Source: an uncultured virus (IMG/VR IMGVR_UViG_3300030104_002980)
Taxonomy: Duplodnaviria; Heunggongvirae; Uroviricota; Caudoviricetes
Length of the DNA: 20,000 nt
Strand: one strand, 5' to 3'
Virus record (IMG/VR): IMGVR_UViG_3300030104_002980
In this document: piece after piece, positions 10,773-20,000 of the stretch
Numbering within the stretch: position 1 is the first letter of the stretch
Layout of the letters: every line of letters begins with the position of its first letter
Translations under genes and position numbers: made by a program
The notes under the pieces: generated by a model
The model's database searches: none
The model's input: the letters and a program-made list of their open reading frames with translations, nothing else
What the model was told of the DNA's origin: nothing

Positions 10773-10985
10773 ATGGATGCACTCTCATGCCCTTGGCCTG
10801 ATCCTTTTTACAGAACTTATATGAACGGAAGACTTAAAAAAATTGACATGGAATCAAGACTTCTTAAAATTAAAAGAGGTCTTGACGAACACTCTTGGTA
10901 TCCAGAGTGGAATGATACTCAAAGAGGTGCTGCACAACGCATACTAAATAATGCGTTAGAAGTGCTTCATGAGTATGACTATTGA
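10773..10985 (+). CDS. Conserved cyanophage hypothetical protein
   Basis: 70-aa ORF (alternative start ATG 10821) between nrdB and the nuclease, overlapping the next gene. Confidence 0.6.
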   Translation: MDALSCPWPDPFYRTYMNGRLKKIDMESRLLKIKRGLDEHSWYPEWNDTQRGAAQRILNNALEVLHEYDY

Positions 10986-11415
10986 TTATGAAAATCCCTG
11001 GCTATATAAAGGTTCAAATTTCTCTTCTAATGATATTGGCGATTTCTTCGGTTACGTCTACATCATTACAAATAATAAGAACGGTAGGGAATATATCGGA
11101 CGTAAATATTTTTGGCAGTTCAGAACTCCTAAAGGTAAAAAACGAAAAGTAAAATCAGAATCTGATTGGAAGAAGTATTATGGGTCTTGTCCGGAACTTA
11201 AAGAAGAAATTGGACGATTGGGTAAACAAAATTTTAGTCGAACTATCTTATCATTACATTATACAAAGGGCAAAACAAACTACGAAGAAACCAGACAACT
11301 CTTTACGAACAGGGTTCTTACGGAGCAGCTTGACGATGGAACCCCAAAATACTACAATAGCAACATACTCTCAAGATATTTTAGAAAAGATTACTATGAA
11401 GGGAACATCGACTGA
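10969..11415 (+). CDS. GIY-YIG endonuclease (EndoII/denA- or Seg-like catalytic domain)
   Basis: GYVYIITN...EYIGRK bipartite motif, KKYYGS, conserved Glu (NYEE) and YYNSN. Position after nrdB plus one small ORF parallels T4 nrdB-nrdB.1-denA. Confidence 0.8.
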   Translation: MSMTIDYENPWLYKGSNFSSNDIGDFFGYVYIITNNKNGREYIGRKYFWQFRTPKGKKRKVKSESDWKKYYGSCPELKEEIGRLGKQNFSRTILSLHYTKGKTNYEETRQLFTNRVLTEQLDDGTPKYYNSNILSRYFRKDYYEGNID

Positions 11416-11599
11416 GGAGACCGTATATTCAACACGTAAGTGGTCTATTGCTCGTATAGATGAAGCACAACCAGTCGCCGATAAAAATGCTATATACAAA
11501 GAGTTTGCAGAATGGATAGAACTTGAGATCGGTGACGATGATATAGAAGTTTTATCACTAGAACCACTAGACGATTACTACCGAGAATCAGAGGGTTGA
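11396..11599 (+). CDS. Small acidic hypothetical protein (67 aa)
   Basis: C-terminal part of the listed 11180..11599 ORF. ATG 11396 avoids the long overlap with the nuclease gene. Confidence 0.6.
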   Translation: MKGTSTEETVYSTRKWSIARIDEAQPVADKNAIYKEFAEWIELEIGDDDIEVLSLEPLDDYYRESEG

Positions 11600-11624
11600 C
11601 AACTCTCAGATAGTATGTCATAAT
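11596..11624 (+). promoter_or_regulatory. sigma70-type promoter for the manA RNA
   Basis: TTGACA(11596-11601)-N17-CATAAT(11619-11624) with TG at the extended -10 position. Predicted start near 11631, where the structured RNA begins. Confidence 0.75.
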
Positions 11625-11630
11625 AAGTTT

Positions 11631-11817
11631 GTCGGACGCGACATAGGGAGTGACTGAATAAACTTACTGGCATATTGCTGGTTAAGGTGATGAGACAGAG
11701 GTGGTGCTCGCTGTCAGGAATGGCAGAACTATCTTACCAGATAGGTCTTAGGCAAAGATGTATTTACTCTGTAGTAATGCCCATCTTTTGTTGGTATACA
11801 GGAATCCAACCTCCCCC
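11631..11817 (+). ncRNA. manA RNA: manA RNA motif (structured cis-regulatory RNA / riboswitch candidate)
   Basis: Non-coding, relatively GC-rich, with many helices: GTCG/CGAC 11631-11642; closing GGGAG 11646-50 / CTCCC 11811-15; ACTGGCA/TGCTGGT 11666-82; TGAGAC 11691-96 / GTCTTA 11745-50; CTGTCA-GGAA-TGGCAG 11711-26 (GNRA loop); CTATCT/AGATAG 11729-44; AAAGATG/CATCTTT 11754-88; GTTGG/CCAAC 11790-11810; loop-loop CTGTA 11769-73 with TACAG 11797-801. Lies 5' of a mannose-6-P isomerase-like gene in a cyanophage, the known context of the manA motif. Confidence 0.8.
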
Positions 11818-11824
11818 TTTCTTT

Positions 11825-11875
11825 TAAGACCTAAGATGCAACTTTATAAGTGGGGCAGAGGGTCTTATTTTTTTT
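11825..11875 (+). terminator. Intrinsic terminator downstream of the manA RNA
   Basis: TAAGACC 11825-31 / GGTCTTA 11861-67 stem, inner TGC/GCA and ACTT/AAGT pairs, then T8 at 11868-75. Confidence 0.6.
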
Positions 11876-11882
11876 AATTGAT

Positions 11883-12218
11883 ATGAAAGTAGATAAACCA
11901 TGGGGATCATATGAGGTATTGTTGGACGAACCAACATACAAAGTAAAAAGAATTATAATCTTACCTCAACAACAACTCTCTCTACAGTATCATAATCTTA
12001 GAGAGGAGCATTGGACAATTGTAGAAGGTAGTGGAACTATACATGTTAATGGTGTGGATTTCCAAGGTGTTGTTGGTGATAGAATTATGATTAACAAAAA
12101 AGAGGTTCACCGAGCAAAGGCTAATCAAGAACGTTTAGTTTTTATTGAGGTTCAATTAGGTGAATGTAAAGAAGATGATATTATTAGATTAGAGGATCAG
12201 TATGGTAGAGTCAAATGA
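11883..12218 (+). CDS. manA: Cupin-domain mannose-6-phosphate isomerase (type II PMI C-terminal-like domain)
   Basis: KPWGSY..L, YKVKRI, LSLQYH..REEHW.IV.G, HR, LVFIEVQLG, EDDIIRLEDQYGR match the cupin isomerase domain of ManC/AlgA-type enzymes. ATG 11883. Confidence 0.85.
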   Translation: MKVDKPWGSYEVLLDEPTYKVKRIIILPQQQLSLQYHNLREEHWTIVEGSGTIHVNGVDFQGVVGDRIMINKKEVHRAKANQERLVFIEVQLGECKEDDIIRLEDQYGRVK

Positions 12219-13081: not shown

Positions 13082-13213
13082 ATGCCTGATAAAAAGGTTG
13101 CTTTAGAAAGATTACATGAAGATTACCGAGCAATTCAGAGGAAAAAGAAGGTAAGTAAAGAAGATGAGGCTATAATAGAATTATATACAACTGGTCGGGG
13201 ATCCGATGCTTGA
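13082..13213 (+). CDS. 43-aa small ORF not in the supplied track
   Basis: MPDKKVALERLHEDYRAIQRKKKVSKEDEAIIELYTTGRGSDA, ATG 13082 to TGA 13213, fills the gap. Confidence 0.5.
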   Translation: MPDKKVALERLHEDYRAIQRKKKVSKEDEAIIELYTTGRGSDA

Positions 13214-13238
13214 CATTATCGCAGATTAAATTTAAAAT
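13210..13238 (+). promoter_or_regulatory. sigma70-type early promoter
   Basis: TTGACA(13210-15)-N17-TAAAAT(13233-38). Confidence 0.7.
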
Positions 13239-13913: not shown

Positions 13914-13942
13914 TTGACATTTAATTCTTAATTTCTTATAAT
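13914..13942 (+). promoter_or_regulatory. Consensus sigma70 promoter for the glycan cluster
   Basis: Perfect TTGACA(13914-19)-N17-TATAAT(13937-42), 20 nt upstream of ATG 13963. Confidence 0.85.
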
Positions 13943-13962
13943 AATTATAATACGATAATCGC

Positions 13963-15096
13963 ATGAGTAAATTTAAAAAAACTGCACTTGTTCTCGGTGC
14001 TGGTGGCTTTATTGGAAGTCACATGGTTAAGCGACTTAAATCCGAGGGATACTGGGTGCGTGGAGTTGATTTAAAATATCCTGAATTTTCAGACAGTGAA
14101 GCACATGAATTTATTCAAGGTGATTTACGTGATGTTCATTTTGTAAAACGTGTCCTTGAATTTAAAGGTTATCAAGGTAATTTTTATAATTCAGTTCCTT
14201 ATCAACACATTGAACCATTTGATGAGATATATCAATTTGCTGCTGACATGGGTGGTGCAGGGTTTGTATTCACAGGAGAGAATGATGCAGATATCATGCA
14301 CAACTCAGTATCAATTAATTTAAATGTTTTAGAAGAACAAAGAAAGTTGAATGAAACATTCGATGGTGAAAAGAAAGATTGGACAGAAGCAAATAGATCT
14401 AAGTTACTCTGGAAAACAAAGATATTTTATTCTGGGTCTGCATGTATGTATCCAGAACACAATCAACTAGACCCTAATAACCCAGACTGTCGTGAAGAAT
14501 CCGCTTACCCTGCTAACCCTGATTCCGAATACGGATGGGAAAAACTCTTTTCTGAGAGGTTATATCTCTCTTATAATCGTAATCATGGTATCCCTGTTAG
14601 GATTGCTCGTTACCATAACATCTTCGGGCCAGAAGGAACATGGAAAGGAGGAAGAGAAAAGGCTCCCGCTGCCATCTGCAGAAAGGTTGCCTACGCTACC
14701 AGCGGAGATGAGATTGAAGTATGGGGAGACGGAGAACAAACAAGATCCTTCCTCTACATCGACGAATGTATTGAAGCAACCCGTAGGCTTATGGATTCCG
14801 ATTTTCTAGGGCCTGTAAACATAGGGTCTGAGGAGATGGTTACTATTAATCAATTGGTAGAGACTGCTGCTAAAGTTGCAAATAAAACAATTAAGAAAAA
14901 TCATATTGATGGCCCTCTAGGAGTGCGTGGTCGTAATTCAAACAATGATCTTATTCGTGAGAAACTTGGGTGGGATTATGAGCAAACTTTAGAGGAAGGT
15001 ATCAAGAAAACATATGGTTGGATAAGTTGGCAAATATCTAAAGAACTTTATCAGGAAGCAGATCCAATTTTAAACGAGGCAATGATTGCAGGTTAA
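13963..15096 (+). CDS. NAD-dependent epimerase, GDP-mannose 3,5-epimerase (GME)-like
   Basis: GAGGFIG, FAADMGGAGF, SACMYP (catalytic Cys), YGWEK (YxxxK), REKAPAAICRK (catalytic Lys), WGDGEQTRSF, GVRGRNSNN. Confidence 0.88.
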   Translation: MSKFKKTALVLGAGGFIGSHMVKRLKSEGYWVRGVDLKYPEFSDSEAHEFIQGDLRDVHFVKRVLEFKGYQGNFYNSVPYQHIEPFDEIYQFAADMGGAGFVFTGENDADIMHNSVSINLNVLEEQRKLNETFDGEKKDWTEANRSKLLWKTKIFYSGSACMYPEHNQLDPNNPDCREESAYPANPDSEYGWEKLFSERLYLSYNRNHGIPVRIARYHNIFGPEGTWKGGREKAPAAICRKVAYATSGDEIEVWGDGEQTRSFLYIDECIEATRRLMDSDFLGPVNIGSEEMVTINQLVETAAKVANKTIKKNHIDGPLGVRGRNSNNDLIREKLGWDYEQTLEEGIKKTYGWISWQISKELYQEADPILNEAMIAG

Positions 15097-15098
15097 TT

Positions 15099-15947
15099 AT
15101 GAGAGTTAGTATATTAGGCTCCGGTGGACAGATAGGAGCATATCTTGCAGAATATTTTCGCAAGAAAAATTATGAAGTCTTAGAGTTTGATATTACAAAC
15201 GGTCAACATGAAGATATGACTGTGATTCCTAATCCAGAATTGCATCGTAAAATAATGTTGTCAGATTTTGTTTTCTTTTTAGCATTTGATGTTGGTGGAT
15301 CACATTATCTTAAAAAATATCAACACACATTTCAGTTCATAGATAACAACACTAGACTGATGGCAAATACATTTGGGTTATTACAAAAATATAATAAACC
15401 TTTTGTATTTGCATCATCACAAATGAGTAACATGTCATACTCACCTTATGGTGTGTTAAAAAGAGTTGGCGAACTTTATACCAAGTCTCTTGGTGGATTG
15501 ATTGTCAAATTTTGGAATGTTTATGGCATTGAAAAGGATATGGAAAAGGCACATGTCATCACAGATTTCATTCGTAAAGGATTTGAAACTGGTGTCATAG
15601 ATATGATGACAGATGGAACTGAAGCAAGGGAGTTTCTTTATGCAGAAGACTGTTGCGAAGCGTTGGAAGCTGTCATGGCAAATTATGATAGACTTACTTC
15701 TGACGACGAACTTCATATTACTACTGGTAATTGCACAACTATACTGGAAATTGCACAGAGTATACAAAAATTATTTTCCAAAATTGGAAAAGAAGTTGTG
15801 ATCAGACGATCAGAATCTGTAGATGAAGTGCAGAAAGATGCTCGAAACGTATCAGATCCTTACATACAAAAATTTTGGAAATCTAAAACCTCTGTTAAAG
15901 AGGGTGTTTCAAAAGTCTTTGAGGAGATGAAAAAAAATTATGTCTGA
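15099..15947 (+). CDS. NAD-dependent nucleotide-sugar epimerase/dehydratase/reductase (extended SDR)
   Basis: GSGGQIG Rossmann motif, FASS, YGVLK, NVYG, DGTEAREFLYAED. Confidence 0.85.
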   Translation: MRVSILGSGGQIGAYLAEYFRKKNYEVLEFDITNGQHEDMTVIPNPELHRKIMLSDFVFFLAFDVGGSHYLKKYQHTFQFIDNNTRLMANTFGLLQKYNKPFVFASSQMSNMSYSPYGVLKRVGELYTKSLGGLIVKFWNVYGIEKDMEKAHVITDFIRKGFETGVIDMMTDGTEAREFLYAEDCCEALEAVMANYDRLTSDDELHITTGNCTTILEIAQSIQKLFSKIGKEVVIRRSESVDEVQKDARNVSDPYIQKFWKSKTSVKEGVSKVFEEMKKNYV

Positions 15948-16749
15948 TTTAAAATGGTGGTCTTGGTATATTAAAGAAAAAATTGCTTCTGAAGGAGTTA
16001 TTAATTTTCTTAGTGATACTAGATTTTGTGATTTAGGAACTAATTCTTTATTGTTAATTGATCTGGTAAAGGATGTAAAGAATAAAAGATTTTTAGATCT
16101 TGGTGTTCGTGACGGTGCATCATCTATCGCTTTATCTGTTAATGCTTCTGAAAATAATAATCACGTTTATGGATGCGATTTAAATTTTTCAGGATTATCT
16201 GTGAACGGAGGAGAAAAATTTTTAAATGACGACTATGTTAGATGTCAAGCAGATAGTGTAACATTAGGAAAAAATTGGTGTGTAGATCCTTTTGATATAA
16301 TTTTTGTAGACACGTTACATACAAGAGAGATTGTTCTCGCAGAACTTTATTTTTGGTCAAATCATATTAATGAAAATGGATATTTCATTTTTCATGATTC
16401 TCACTGGGATCATACTACAAAGGGAGATATGATAGCAGGTAAGGAGTATAGAAGAGTGGATGAAGCGATTACTGAATTTTTTAATCTCCCTAAAAATGTT
16501 ATGGAACTAACTGAATATGATGATCATGACATTTTTCTTTCCCATCATCCGGGTGATTATGGAATGACTTTCATAAAAATTAAAAATTTAGATGCAATAA
16601 AGAGATTTAAGGATGGAATTGATTGGGAAGAAGTATTTGTTCTTCGTAACGAATTAAATGATTTACATTTTAACAAGAACAATCCTAAGTTTATAAATTG
16701 GAAACAAGATATTCCTAATATTCAAAATGAATTAATTATTACACCATGA
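15940..16749 (+). CDS. Class I SAM-dependent methyltransferase (Methyltransf_24-like)
   Basis: FLDLGVRDGASS motif I, VYGCD, FDIIFVDTLH, GYFIFHDS. Confidence 0.8.
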   Translation: MSDLKWWSWYIKEKIASEGVINFLSDTRFCDLGTNSLLLIDLVKDVKNKRFLDLGVRDGASSIALSVNASENNNHVYGCDLNFSGLSVNGGEKFLNDDYVRCQADSVTLGKNWCVDPFDIIFVDTLHTREIVLAELYFWSNHINENGYFIFHDSHWDHTTKGDMIAGKEYRRVDEAITEFFNLPKNVMELTEYDDHDIFLSHHPGDYGMTFIKIKNLDAIKRFKDGIDWEEVFVLRNELNDLHFNKNNPKFINWKQDIPNIQNELIITP

Positions 16750-17558
16750 GTTTTTCTGTTTCCCATTGGTCGGGTCGTTTAGGAAATAATATACAGCAAG
16801 TTGCTAATTGTATTATGGCTGCTGAGAAAAATAAAACTGATTTCACTCAGACACTTGATCACGATATAATATCTAAATTTACAGTGAATTTTGGATCTGA
16901 TAATATAAAACAATCAGGTAGATTCTATGCTTGGGAGGCATTAGTTCATTGTGAGCATGGATGTTATGAGGGTGGTAATGAAATCGGTGTTGGTGTCGAG
17001 CATGTATATCGTAATATGCGTCGTGTATGTAAACGTATCGCACCTAATTTAGTCTTACCAAAGAAAGATTCTATTGGTGATGATACAATTGTAATGCATC
17101 TTCGTAGTGGTGATAATTATCATCGTGTCTTTGATCCACCAACAAATTATATTCCAAACCCACTTATCTTTTATCTAAATCTTATTGATTCATTTGAGAA
17201 ATGTATTCTTATTACAGAACCAGATAGAAACAATCCTATAGTTCATGAACTTATGAAGATTGATAAGGTAAAAGTTCAATCTTCTACAGTAGCAGATGAC
17301 TTTGCAACATTGATGAGTGCAAAGAATGTAGCACTGTCTGGTGTGGGAACTTTCGCAATGGCAGCAGCTCTGTGCTCCACTCAAATAAAGAACCTATATA
17401 CAACTGACTTGTTATTGACAGAGCATTTGAATTATAGTATGCTGATGAAAACAGATGTTGAAGTTCATGTGATGGAATTGGATAACTATCTTCCTGTTTT
17501 TCCATGTAGTTGGAAAAATACAGAGGATCAACGTAAATTTATTCTAGATTATCGATGA
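16746..17558 (+). CDS. GT11-like (alpha-1,2-fucosyltransferase-type) glycosyltransferase
   Basis: N-terminal GRLGNNIQQ, HLRSGD (HxRRxD-like), DDFATLMSAKNVALSGVGTF (D...STF-like motif). Confidence 0.7.
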   Translation: MSFSVSHWSGRLGNNIQQVANCIMAAEKNKTDFTQTLDHDIISKFTVNFGSDNIKQSGRFYAWEALVHCEHGCYEGGNEIGVGVEHVYRNMRRVCKRIAPNLVLPKKDSIGDDTIVMHLRSGDNYHRVFDPPTNYIPNPLIFYLNLIDSFEKCILITEPDRNNPIVHELMKIDKVKVQSSTVADDFATLMSAKNVALSGVGTFAMAAALCSTQIKNLYTTDLLLTEHLNYSMLMKTDVEVHVMELDNYLPVFPCSWKNTEDQRKFILDYR

Positions 17559-18547
17559 AGATTTTTGTAACCGGATGTGCCGGATTACTTGGTGCTAATT
17601 ACACTCGCCACTTGATTAAAAATGGACATCATGTGATTGGTATTGATGACCTATCCGGTGGGCATAAAGCGTTTATCACGAAGGGTGAGAACTTTGAATT
17701 TGTTAAATTAAATTTAGAGAGAAGAAAAAAGGTTGAAGCATTGTTTGAGGAACATAAACCTCAAGTATTGCTTCATTTTGCTGCGTATGCTGCTGAAGGA
17801 TTATCACCATTTATTCGTAATTATAATTATCGTAACAATCTTATTTGTTCTGCAAATCTTATCAATCCATGTATTACATATAAAACTAAGATGATATTTA
17901 CATCATCGATGGCAGTATATGGTGCACAGGAACCACCGTTTACAGAGGATAAACAACCACAACCCATAGATCCATACGGTATGGCAAAGTATGCCGTAGA
18001 ATGTGATCTAAAGATGGCAGAGAAGCAGTTTGGATTAAGATATAATATTGTCAGACCACATAATGTTTTAGGAACTTATCAAAATATTTGGGATAGATAT
18101 CGTAATGTAATTGGTATTTTTATTCGCAAGACTCTAAACGGTCAACCCATACTTGTTTATGGTGATGGGGAACAAACCCGTGCGTTTTCTGATATTAAAT
18201 ACTATATGAATCCTTTTGATATATTATTAAAAGAATTTGATGGAGAAACATTTAATATTGGTGCTGATAAATTCTTTACACTCAATCAGGTTGCAAAAAC
18301 AGTTCAGGATATTGGTAAAAAATATGGATATGATGTTCCGATAGAACATGGCCCTCCTAGACATGAAGCAAAACATGCATATTGTAATCATGACAAGGCA
18401 AAAAATTTGCTTAAGTTTAAAGACAATACTAACCTAGAAGAATTAATTGAAAGTATGTTTGTCTGGGCAATGAAACAACCAAATCGTAAAGTAAAAGATA
18501 TGGAATATGAAGTAACGGAGGGGATATATGACTACTGGAAAAATTAA
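17555..18547 (+). CDS. NAD-dependent nucleotide-sugar epimerase/dehydratase
   Basis: GCAGLLG, IDDLSGG, HFAA, FTSSMAVYG, PYGMAK, RPHNVLG, YGDGEQTRAF. Confidence 0.9.
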   Translation: MKIFVTGCAGLLGANYTRHLIKNGHHVIGIDDLSGGHKAFITKGENFEFVKLNLERRKKVEALFEEHKPQVLLHFAAYAAEGLSPFIRNYNYRNNLICSANLINPCITYKTKMIFTSSMAVYGAQEPPFTEDKQPQPIDPYGMAKYAVECDLKMAEKQFGLRYNIVRPHNVLGTYQNIWDRYRNVIGIFIRKTLNGQPILVYGDGEQTRAFSDIKYYMNPFDILLKEFDGETFNIGADKFFTLNQVAKTVQDIGKKYGYDVPIEHGPPRHEAKHAYCNHDKAKNLLKFKDNTNLEELIESMFVWAMKQPNRKVKDMEYEVTEGIYDYWKN

Positions 18548-18548
18548 T

Positions 18549-19301
18549 ATGGAAGAGAATAGAGCACCAAATTATTGGCTTCGATATGATAAAAAAGATC
18601 ATTACAGACTGAGGCATCAGTTTAAAAATTCTGAAAATGTAGAGGCAAACTGGTCACAATCAATGCAAGACATCTTTGTATTGAGTATGTTGGATGGTAA
18701 AAAGAATGGGTATTATGTTGAGATAGGTGCAGATATGCCTAGAATAATAAACAACTCATACTTATTGGAAAAAAATTATGATTGGACTGGAGTTTCATTT
18801 GAATTGGATAGTGAAAAGGTTGAATACTTTAACACTATTAGAAAAAATAAATGTATATGCACTGATGCAACTACATTTGATTACAAAAAACTTTTTGAAG
18901 AAAGAAACTATCCAAAGCAAATTGATTATCTACAATTAGATATTGATCCATCAGAGGCGACACTTGCTGCTCTAGAAAATTTGCCATTAGATGATTATAG
19001 ATTTTCTGTTATCACATATGAAACTGAAGTTTACCGAGCAGGTATAGATGGATATTATGATGAAATATGGCAAAAGAAATCTGGTGCAATTCTAAGTGAT
19101 TATGGATATGAACTTGTTGTTAAAAATGTAGCAAATCAAGGAAATCCGTATGAAGATTGGTGGGTTGATCCAAAAGTCGTAGATCGTGCTATAATAGAGA
19201 AGTTTAAAGACGATAGTGGATTCACTAAAGAATCTATAGAATGTGTTTTAAGTAATACAAATTTCACCGTAATGCCCATGTATACCCTCACTGAAATATA
19301 A
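18549..19301 (+). CDS. FkbM-like SAM-dependent methyltransferase
   Basis: SQSMQD, GYYVEIGA, NNSYLLE..YDWTGVSFE, IDYLQLDID, EDWWV. ATG 18549 follows the upstream stop (track start 18528). Confidence 0.75.
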   Translation: MEENRAPNYWLRYDKKDHYRLRHQFKNSENVEANWSQSMQDIFVLSMLDGKKNGYYVEIGADMPRIINNSYLLEKNYDWTGVSFELDSEKVEYFNTIRKNKCICTDATTFDYKKLFEERNYPKQIDYLQLDIDPSEATLAALENLPLDDYRFSVITYETEVYRAGIDGYYDEIWQKKSGAILSDYGYELVVKNVANQGNPYEDWWVDPKVVDRAIIEKFKDDSGFTKESIECVLSNTNFTVMPMYTLTEI

Positions 19302-20000
19302 TGAAAAGAAAAGTATTTGATTCTATTATTTTCTTCAATGAACTAGAATTGTTAGAGATGCGTCTCAACATTTTAGGTGATGTTGTGGATCATTTTGTCA
19401 TAACTGAATCTCCATTCACTGTGAGTGGAAATGAAAAACCCCTTTACTATGCAGAGAATAAAGATAGGTTTGCTAAGTTCAATGATAAAATTATACATCA
19501 TGTCACAGAAGAGATACCTAACGATTACAATCATCTATTAGAGAAGACTAAGTTTCATTGTGCATATAAAGAGAATGATCCTTATGGCACACCAATGATT
19601 GATCTTCCAGTTAGATATCAAAGAGCATTATTCAATCGTAATAATAGTGCATTTGGTATTGAGAAAGGTAATCCAAAACCAGAAGATATAATCATCACAA
19701 GTGATGCTGATGAGATTCTTGATCCACGAGTTCTAGAAAATTTAGATTGGTTTGATGGTTATAATCATTATGTTGCAACAGGCCCTGCATTTTATTTCAA
19801 ACTTAATTTTAAATATCAAGATGACTGGATGGGGCCAAGAATATGTAGTTGGTTTAAACTAAAAGACACAACAGTAGATCAACTCAGACAAGATCATAAG
19901 AACGCATATCGTATCGAAGATACTGCATGGCACTTTAGTTTCCTTGGTGATGCAGAAAACTTTAAACTTAAGTTGGCATCATATGAACATACAGAAAATA
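19301..20000 (+). CDS. GT17-like (MGAT3 / beta-1,4-GlcNAc transferase family) glycosyltransferase, 3'-truncated
   Basis: Own translation: MKRKVFDSIIFFNELELLEMRLNILGDVVDHFVITESPFTVSGNEKPLYY...DIIITSDADEI...AWHFSFLGDAENFKLKLASYEHTEN, open to the window end. Confidence 0.8.
   Translation, partial: MKRKVFDSIIFFNELELLEMRLNILGDVVDHFVITESPFTVSGNEKPLYYAENKDRFAKFNDKIIHHVTEEIPNDYNHLLEKTKFHCAYKENDPYGTPMIDLPVRYQRALFNRNNSAFGIEKGNPKPEDIIITSDADEILDPRVLENLDWFDGYNHYVATGPAFYFKLNFKYQDDWMGPRICSWFKLKDTTVDQLRQDHKNAYRIEDTAWHFSFLGDAENFKLKLASYEHTEN

Follow-up and report, generated by a model that had tools for sequence, protein, structure and literature searches.

The manA RNA has been described as a probable cis-regulator and a possible riboswitch (Weinberg et al. 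2010, PMC2864571). Here, we analyzed one manA locus in a stretch of 20,000 nucleotides (nt) from an uncultured virus (IMG/VR record IMGVR_UViG_3300030104_002980), which is called the window below. The window is a piece of a T4-like cyanophage, and its best DNA matches are Prochlorococcus and Synechococcus myoviruses. At the locus, a promoter is followed by a manA RNA, a hairpin and a U8 tract; ribonucleotide reductase genes, a GIY-YIG SegE-type open reading frame (ORF) and a small ORF lie upstream of this unit, and a cupin gene, several small ORFs and a sugar-nucleotide gene cluster lie downstream. The nearest record is a 28-kb fragment (G001) with the same single manA. The most likely reading, which we hold as slightly better than even, is that promoter, manA and hairpin/terminator form a unit from which a discrete, roughly 245-nt RNA is made, while read-through accounts for expression of the cupin gene and the small ORFs. 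The features of the locus are as follows.

11596–11624, plus strand: sigma-70-type promoter (TTGACA, 17-nt spacer, CATAAT), 11/12 consensus positions, with TG before the −10 element
11630–11820, plus strand: manA RNA core, Rfam RF01745, full length (191 bits against a gathering score of 55.2, E 3e-52, model positions 1–192 of 192)
11691–11750, plus strand: junction domain of manA with the stem UGAGAC (11691–96)/GUCUUA (11745–50), from the Rfam alignment and the minimum-free-energy fold
11742–11750, plus strand: TAGGTCTTA, proposed earlier as the 5' strand of an antiterminator, an exact 9-nt inverted repeat with TAAGACCTA at 11825–33
11821–11824, plus strand: end of the pyrimidine-rich linker from the pseudoknot strand to the hairpin, variable in relatives
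11825–11867, plus strand: conserved manA-specific 43-nt 3' hairpin (fold of −13.0 kcal/mol, covariation, loop invariance)
11825–32/11860–67, plus strand: lower stem of the hairpin, 8 pairs
within 11825–11867, plus strand: asymmetric internal loop AAGA/GA of the hairpin, invariant by column conservation
UGC 11837–39/GCA 11855–57, plus strand: 3-bp middle stem of the hairpin, followed by a second internal loop
11841–44/11848–51, plus strand: 4-bp tip of the hairpin, variable by column conservation
11868–11875, plus strand: U8 tract (T8 in the sequence), directly after the lower stem
11180–11599, plus strand: upstream ORF of family phrog_23981, of unknown function, whose stop codon overlaps the −35 hexamer
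11883–12218, plus strand: cupin gene of the mannose-6-phosphate isomerase C-terminal type (Pfam MannoseP_isomer PF01050, E 1e-22)

A first-pass annotation of this locus had described a promoter, a manA RNA, a terminator and a cupin gene with no other obvious promoter, and had proposed that the terminator is mutually exclusive with an antiterminator. All of its sequence statements held in our analysis, as did the promoter, the manA RNA, the hairpin with U8 and the promoterless cupin gene; the mutually exclusive terminator/antiterminator was not supported.

Relatives were gathered from IMG/VR by two anchors, the manA 5' anchor and the first 14 bases of the hairpin, each of which gave at least 120 loci. 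After duplicates were removed, 57 distinct sequences with both manA and hairpin were aligned (alignment A1), and pairs were counted on A1 for three structures: the hairpin, the manA junction stem and the proposed antiterminator. All family counts refer to the matches listed by these searches. Folding energies follow the nearest-neighbour model and exclude pseudoknot and tertiary terms.

The full-length match to the Rfam model answers the identity check that the first-pass annotation had called for. Both pseudoknot strands are present in the window, GGGAG at 11646–50 and CUCCC at about 11811–15, and by eye the manA of phage P-HM1 has GGGUG with CACCC at the same places. The cyanophage setting agrees with the occurrence of the family in T4-like cyanophages or marine gamma-proteobacteria. 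The junction domain holds three hairpins with GUGGUG, GGAA and UACC loops (local fold of −19.2 kcal/mol), and its stem is 100% paired in A1, with 3 pairs changed on both sides. In P-TIM68 (L244), whose manA copy carries no 3' hairpin, the junction stem is fully swapped, ACAUU/AAUGU for GAGAC/GUCUC, which is compensatory within manA.

Two pairs of loops that could kiss, GUGGUG with ACCA and CUGUA with UACAG, are present in the window and invariant in A1. A preprint of July 2026 has reported by cryo-EM that manA RNAs form pentamer-based decamers and a 60-subunit cage in vitro via kissing loops (10.64898/2026.07.01.735769), and we infer that the two pairs are its L5-L7' and L8-L9'. The RNA of the window is of the same family as these assemblies, which are in vitro only.

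The promoter that the first-pass annotation had read as TTGACA-N17-CATAAT was found at 11596–11624. Transcription would start at about 11630–11632, that is, at the first manA bases. We then compared 87 distinct manA upstream regions, counting a promoter at 9/12 or more consensus positions, and found one at a fixed offset in 82 of them, 77 of these with 11–12/12. The −10 element of the relatives ends 20–32 nt ahead of the GGG anchor, a few bases short of the first manA hairpin. Among the five low-scoring regions, four show TTGACA and TATAAA by eye.

The arrangement in part resembles the PeSL cassettes of T4-type phages, in which a strong sigma-70-like promoter and a stem-loop terminator lie between movable accessory genes (Arbiol et al. 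2010, PMC2839356). However, the manA cassette drives a large structured RNA, whereas PeSL as described there drives an ORF, and the window's own upstream stem-loop is weak and has no U-run. In L012, L013, L017, L045 and many other loci, compact PeSL-like terminator-promoter joints lie about 20–60 nt upstream of manA; each is a GC-rich hairpin with the −35 TTGACA in its loop, and the U-run doubles as the promoter spacer.

An intrinsic terminator is a stable stem followed by a U tract. The hairpin (−13.0 kcal/mol as a whole) has an 8-pair lower stem, which is directly followed by the T8 that the first-pass annotation had pointed out, and the arms TAAGACC/GGTCTTA form 7 Watson-Crick pairs and a U-G wobble, again as it had stated. 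Hairpin and U8 together look like an intrinsic terminator, at which transcripts would end. A simple terminator scan omitted this hairpin because its 26-nt top exceeds the loop limit of the scan.

The hairpin is conserved as a structure. In A1, 91% of its pair cells are paired and 4 pairs are changed on both sides; RNAalifold independently found the same three helices, 3 pairs of which keep pairing through two-sided changes. It is also tied to manA. Among the loci with the hairpin 14-mer (at least 120), 73 have the full hairpin, and 72 of the 73 have the manA 3' strand at most 40 nt upstream; in the last case just 2 nt of sequence precede the hairpin. The second hairpin half is missing from the 47 further loci, which are chance matches in coding sequence. 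When a covariance model of the hairpin (R1) was run against five whole phage records, the single strong match lay 4 nt after the sole manA of a 210-kb genome, and nothing else in these records was credible.

Catalogues of known elements gave little for the hairpin. Rfam on 11560–11900, with E up to 10, returned only the manA match as credible and nothing for the hairpin; the RF01745 model ends at 11820, before the hairpin, and the part of the seed alignment seen likewise ends just past the pseudoknot strand. BLAST of 11806–11872 against 50,697 deposited phage records, a set that may lack close relatives of the window, found the canonical hairpin in none, and hence in no cultured phage that we can name, giving only chance matches and the P-HM1 manA 3' end, where an unrelated, divergent terminator stands at the hairpin's place. 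We regard the hairpin, on comparative grounds, as a manA-specific and uncatalogued 3' module rather than a generic terminator.

The conservation within the hairpin is uneven. In 26 sequences whose retrieval did not depend on the hairpin, 10/10 and 9/10 columns of the internal loops and middle stem are invariant, and invariant columns are 1/15 in the tip, 1/16 in the linker and 1/10 in the tail. Loop invariance amid a variable tip and linker points to selection that would act on the loop bases themselves. The loop, with GA on both strands and a UAA bulge, may resemble protein-binding kink-turn-like or UAA/GAN-like motifs. A canonical kink-turn, in which a three-base bulge and tandem sheared G-A pairs lie right against a Watson-Crick stem, was set aside because by eye its register does not seem to fit: UAA and then GA lie opposite GA, with an extra base (U or G) on the non-bulged strand between GA and the stem.

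Such invariant loops beside a variable tip and linker are what would be expected of tertiary contacts. manA could be a sensor of a ligand, of Mg2+ or, via oligomerisation, of its own concentration, with the hairpin loops docking on the core or on a neighbouring subunit; this docking, in place of a Watson-Crick antiterminator, would decide if the lower stem forms early enough to halt the polymerase. The hairpin was never found apart from manA among the matches listed and the five whole records, promoterless accessory genes lie behind it, and manA RNAs make specific RNA-RNA contacts in vitro (10.64898/2026.07.01.735769). However, neither a shuffle test nor inspection of A1 by eye found complementarity to conserved core segments, and about 70% of manA RNAs have no hairpin, so that it is not needed for the core's job. 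We consider this explanation unlikely.

The U-run behind the hairpin is optional and varies with what follows. Among the 57 distinct relatives, 32 have a U-run; the 25 hairpins without one all lie ahead of gp32 (19) or a tRNA-like gene (6), gp32 being identified from the P-HM2 annotation. The 32 hairpins with a U-run all precede other genes, including talC, a HAD-type gene, cupin and a small MSIK protein. In a wider set of 90 distinct manA from the manA anchor, the tails are 17 hairpins with U-run, 9 hairpins without, 11 other terminators, 6 cases with a tRNA directly behind, and an ORF in the rest. A tRNA-like conserved gene lies right behind manA or the hairpin in L017, L020, L047, L060, L079, L108 and others, and ARAGORN calls a tRNA in L020 and L079; in L005, L031, L048 and L084 a normal-looking tRNA starts 10–20 nt past manA.

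This split could also be explained if a protein or nuclease recognised the hairpin, or were kept off by it, so that the hairpin marked and stabilised the 3' end of a processed manA RNA; that end would arise by termination, through RNase P where a tRNA follows, or from cleavage within the AU-rich gp32 leader. The hairpin is indeed kept in all three contexts, with the U-run in 32/32 cases where gp32 or tRNA is absent and 0/25 where one is present. However, this account comes without a candidate protein, and by eye the canonical kink-turn register does not seem to fit. Moreover, the clean split rests on few independent events, because the 19 gp32 cases probably go back to one or two lineages. It seems improbable to us.

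In 19 loci, including L040, L096 and L185, a leader of 37–39 nt that is A/U-rich and looks unstructured lies between the hairpin and the gp32 start. Gene 32 of phage T4 is autoregulated via a 5' pseudoknot followed by an unstructured A/U-rich leader, and the layout in the manA relatives is similar to it.

Copy number and position were examined in complete genomes. manA is single-copy in 4/4 complete carriers (P-HM1, P-TIM68, P-HM2 and the 210-kb record). In P-HM1 and MED4-213, manA and its promoter come directly after the major capsid gene; in P-TIM68, manA comes after nrd genes and before talC; in P-HM2, it comes before gp32. Because a single-copy manA sits at different places in phage genomes, we read it, from genome comparison, as a portable RNA unit and not a leader bound to one pathway.

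The first-pass annotation had proposed a metabolite riboswitch, in which an unfolded core would pair 11742–50 with 11825–33 and allow read-through, and a ligand-bound fold would free the arm so that the terminator stops transcription. manA has been rated as a probable riboswitch (PMC2864571), and the locus has the structured RNA, the hairpin with U tract and the promoterless gene of terminator/antiterminator riboswitches. The 9-nt reverse complement is exact, and 11742–50 does lie on the 3' strands of the CUAUCU/AGAUAG hairpin and the UGAGAC/GUCUUA stem, on which the Rfam alignment and the minimum-free-energy fold agree. It would also rarely arise by chance in the window: the expectation for this 9-mer is 0.14 per 20 kb, counting both strands, and two or more matches occurred in 2/200 shuffles. 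In the window lineage the arm thus has two possible partners, and the duplexes have similar energies, −10.8 kcal/mol for the terminator arm and −10.5 kcal/mol for the antiterminator.

However, the pairing is neither conserved nor covarying in A1. The covariation check across homologues gave 0 compensatory changes in 57 sequences. All 9 antiterminator pairs form in 2/57, the window and L202; in most relatives the antiterminator is reduced to five Watson-Crick pairs and a wobble. The GGUCU core of the manA strand varies in 4 sequences (L022, L072, L044 and L167), and the antiterminator is broken in all four. Each change is matched within manA, where the stem is GAGAU/AUCUC in L022 and L072 and GAGUC/GACUC in L044 and L167, so that the manA strand changes in concert with its manA partner. 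In these sequences the hairpin arm remains (A)GACC, except that of L022, which co-changes with its own partner (AAACC/GGUUU). Because all four hairpins bear U-runs, the antiterminator is lost in the very sequences whose terminators would require it; in addition, 25/57 hairpins have no U-run at all.

The energies also speak against the riboswitch. Forcing the 9 pairs in the window gives −60.3 against −68.7 kcal/mol, a penalty of 8.4 kcal/mol, and the antiterminator has an equilibrium probability of 0.00 for the full transcript and of 0.04 when the transcript ends before the 3' arm. The terminator starts 4 nt past the conserved RNA and does not overlap it, which is different from terminator/antiterminator riboswitches. 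Family-wide complementarity is no greater than in shuffles: the hairpin halves pair with the manA core no better than shuffled halves (mean z +0.09; window −0.83), and the unrelated terminators behind manA in 13 other loci and P-HM1 show no excess complementarity to the core (mean z +0.22). The idea of a mannose-metabolite ligand rests on the neighbouring genes, yet the same single-copy RNA lies before gp32, talC, HAD, cupin or tRNA genes, or after the capsid gene. Taken together, we consider the metabolite riboswitch highly improbable.

We take the 9-nt complementarity to be peculiar to this lineage and no conserved antiterminator: the manA junction stem and the hairpin lower stem share a GGUCU/AGAC(C) core, which in the window lineage happens to be A-U-extended in both.

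Other pairings were considered and rejected. By eye, two further partners offered themselves for the hairpin, the 3' strand of the long manA hairpin for its AAGAUG and the GGAA-loop hairpin for its GGCAGA; in both cases the partner varies in relatives and the hairpin does not. The G-rich arms of generic terminators pair with the CCUCCC strand no better than shuffles. A second, overlapping 7-nt complement lies in another register (11746–11752/11830–11836, TCTTAGG/CCTAAGA) and is interrupted in most relatives (TCTCAGG).

We return to the unit of promoter, manA and hairpin/terminator. A strong host-type (sigma-70) promoter would fire at the first manA base; the 191-nt manA core would fold, and the 43-nt subfamily hairpin would follow 4 nt on. 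The hairpin is proposed to end most transcripts of the window because a U8 tract is carried here, giving the discrete RNA of about 245 nt. Polymerases that read through would transcribe the cupin gene and the small ORFs behind it. The cupin start lies 8 nt past the U tract, and the promoter scan found no promoter-like site between 11624 and 11966, which agrees with the first-pass statement that this gene of mannose isomerase type (PF01050 match) has no other obvious promoter; from this lack, the cupin gene is predicted to be reachable by read-through alone. The manA RNA would then act as a product in its own right and not as a metabolite switch, which is compatible with the in vitro self-assembly reported in 2026.

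Several points weigh against this reading. The start site, the termination at U8 and the leaky read-through are all deduced from sequence. The hairpin must have a further, unnamed role, because invariant internal loops are unnecessary for termination. Promoterless genes, namely the cupin gene in the window and talC, HAD and others in relatives, lie directly behind the hairpin and U-run, which has the look of a regulated attenuator, and a plain terminator ahead of promoterless accessory genes seems wasteful. Roughly half of manA RNAs lack both hairpin and terminator and are simple 5' leaders, as would suit a cis role. The 5-bp antiterminator core GGUCU/AGACC is kept in 53/57 sequences, and such invariant pairs neither support nor exclude a weak alternative pairing. 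Finally, the assemblies of the preprint were obtained in vitro, at about 3 mg/mL RNA after annealing (10.64898/2026.07.01.735769).

The neighbouring genes showed further features. A complete GIY-YIG SegE-type homing-endonuclease domain (PF19835, E 8e-54) was found in the ORF at 10969–11415. In PHROGs its family goes under 'NAD synthetase', a label also given to the P-TIM68 homologue, which lies directly upstream of manA; this name is probably wrong. A free-standing homing endonuclease adjoining a portable manA unit may bear on the movement of the unit. The window has two more near-consensus promoters, at 13210–13238 (11/12) and 13914–13942 (12/12). The latter directly precedes the sugar-nucleotide cluster at 13963–19999, which contains three epimerase/dehydratase genes, a methyltransferase and a GT17 glycosyltransferase. 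Because it has its own promoter, this cluster is independent of the manA unit.

Metatranscriptome contigs from four RNA runs of four studies cover only about 11646–11815, with a summed word depth from hundreds to about 4000; at 92% likeness or more, hardly any cover falls on the flanking genes, apart from three small patches of depth below 4 in X1 and X7. We dropped this cover as a sign of abundance or of a stand-alone RNA: the contigs mix relatives and are uninformative on ends, strand and level, and flanks without cover carry no weight. Contigs from two runs pass into adapter sequence just outside the pseudoknot strands, at about 11641/11646 (5' side) and 11815 (3' side). With one contig each, this is no more than a hint at possible short inserts that would derive from a compact core of about 170 nt.

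In GenBank, small hypothetical ORFs are called across manA, namely PHM2_011 and PHM2_012 in P-HM2 (L245 1555–1729) and PHM1_121 in P-HM1 (L242 1476–1652); these are probably not real genes. RNA-seq of P-HM2 infection places the two small ORFs across manA in middle cluster C, and the available text holds nothing on ends or level (PMC5082946).

The window agrees with the original description of the manA motif (RF01745, PMC2864571): it has a full-length member, in a T4-like cyanophage, upstream of a mannose-isomerase-type cupin, among the gene classes originally named. The 43-nt hairpin, the fixed promoter and the one-copy pattern are different, in that they were not found in the available text of that description. 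A phage genome paper of 2023 still gave the role of manA as unverified, our literature search found no reported manA ligand, and the available text of the review by McCown et al. 2017 (PMC5473149) does not discuss manA. The preprint, in its available text, is without ligand or in vivo data and does not address the natural ends, the 3' hairpin or a role in infection (10.64898/2026.07.01.735769).

An orphan ever since 2010, manA was in 2026 the first natural RNA for which the building of an icosahedral cage in vitro was reported. Our results guide the choice of molecule: the unit has a fixed promoter start, about three in ten RNAs end in the family-specific hairpin, and there is one unit per genome at changing positions. 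A mannose-metabolite attenuator acting via 11742–50/11825–33 does not merit further pursuit as a mechanism for the family at large. The presence of the U-run goes with the kind of gene downstream, which suggests that the read-through out of the manA unit is tuned by phages; this bears on the dosing of auxiliary metabolic genes such as talC. A wider reading, which we put forward tentatively and regard as rather doubtful, is that manA, instead of being a leader switch, is a phage RNA gene with its own promoter cassette, present once per genome and moving between sites, whose discrete RNA forms particles; the hairpin would be a tenth helix whose invariant loops make a structural or protein contact, serving as a terminator through its U-run where the next gene is dispensable. 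If this is true, the constructs studied so far may omit a native domain, and infected cyanobacteria may hold RNA cages or decamers of transcripts of about 245 nt.

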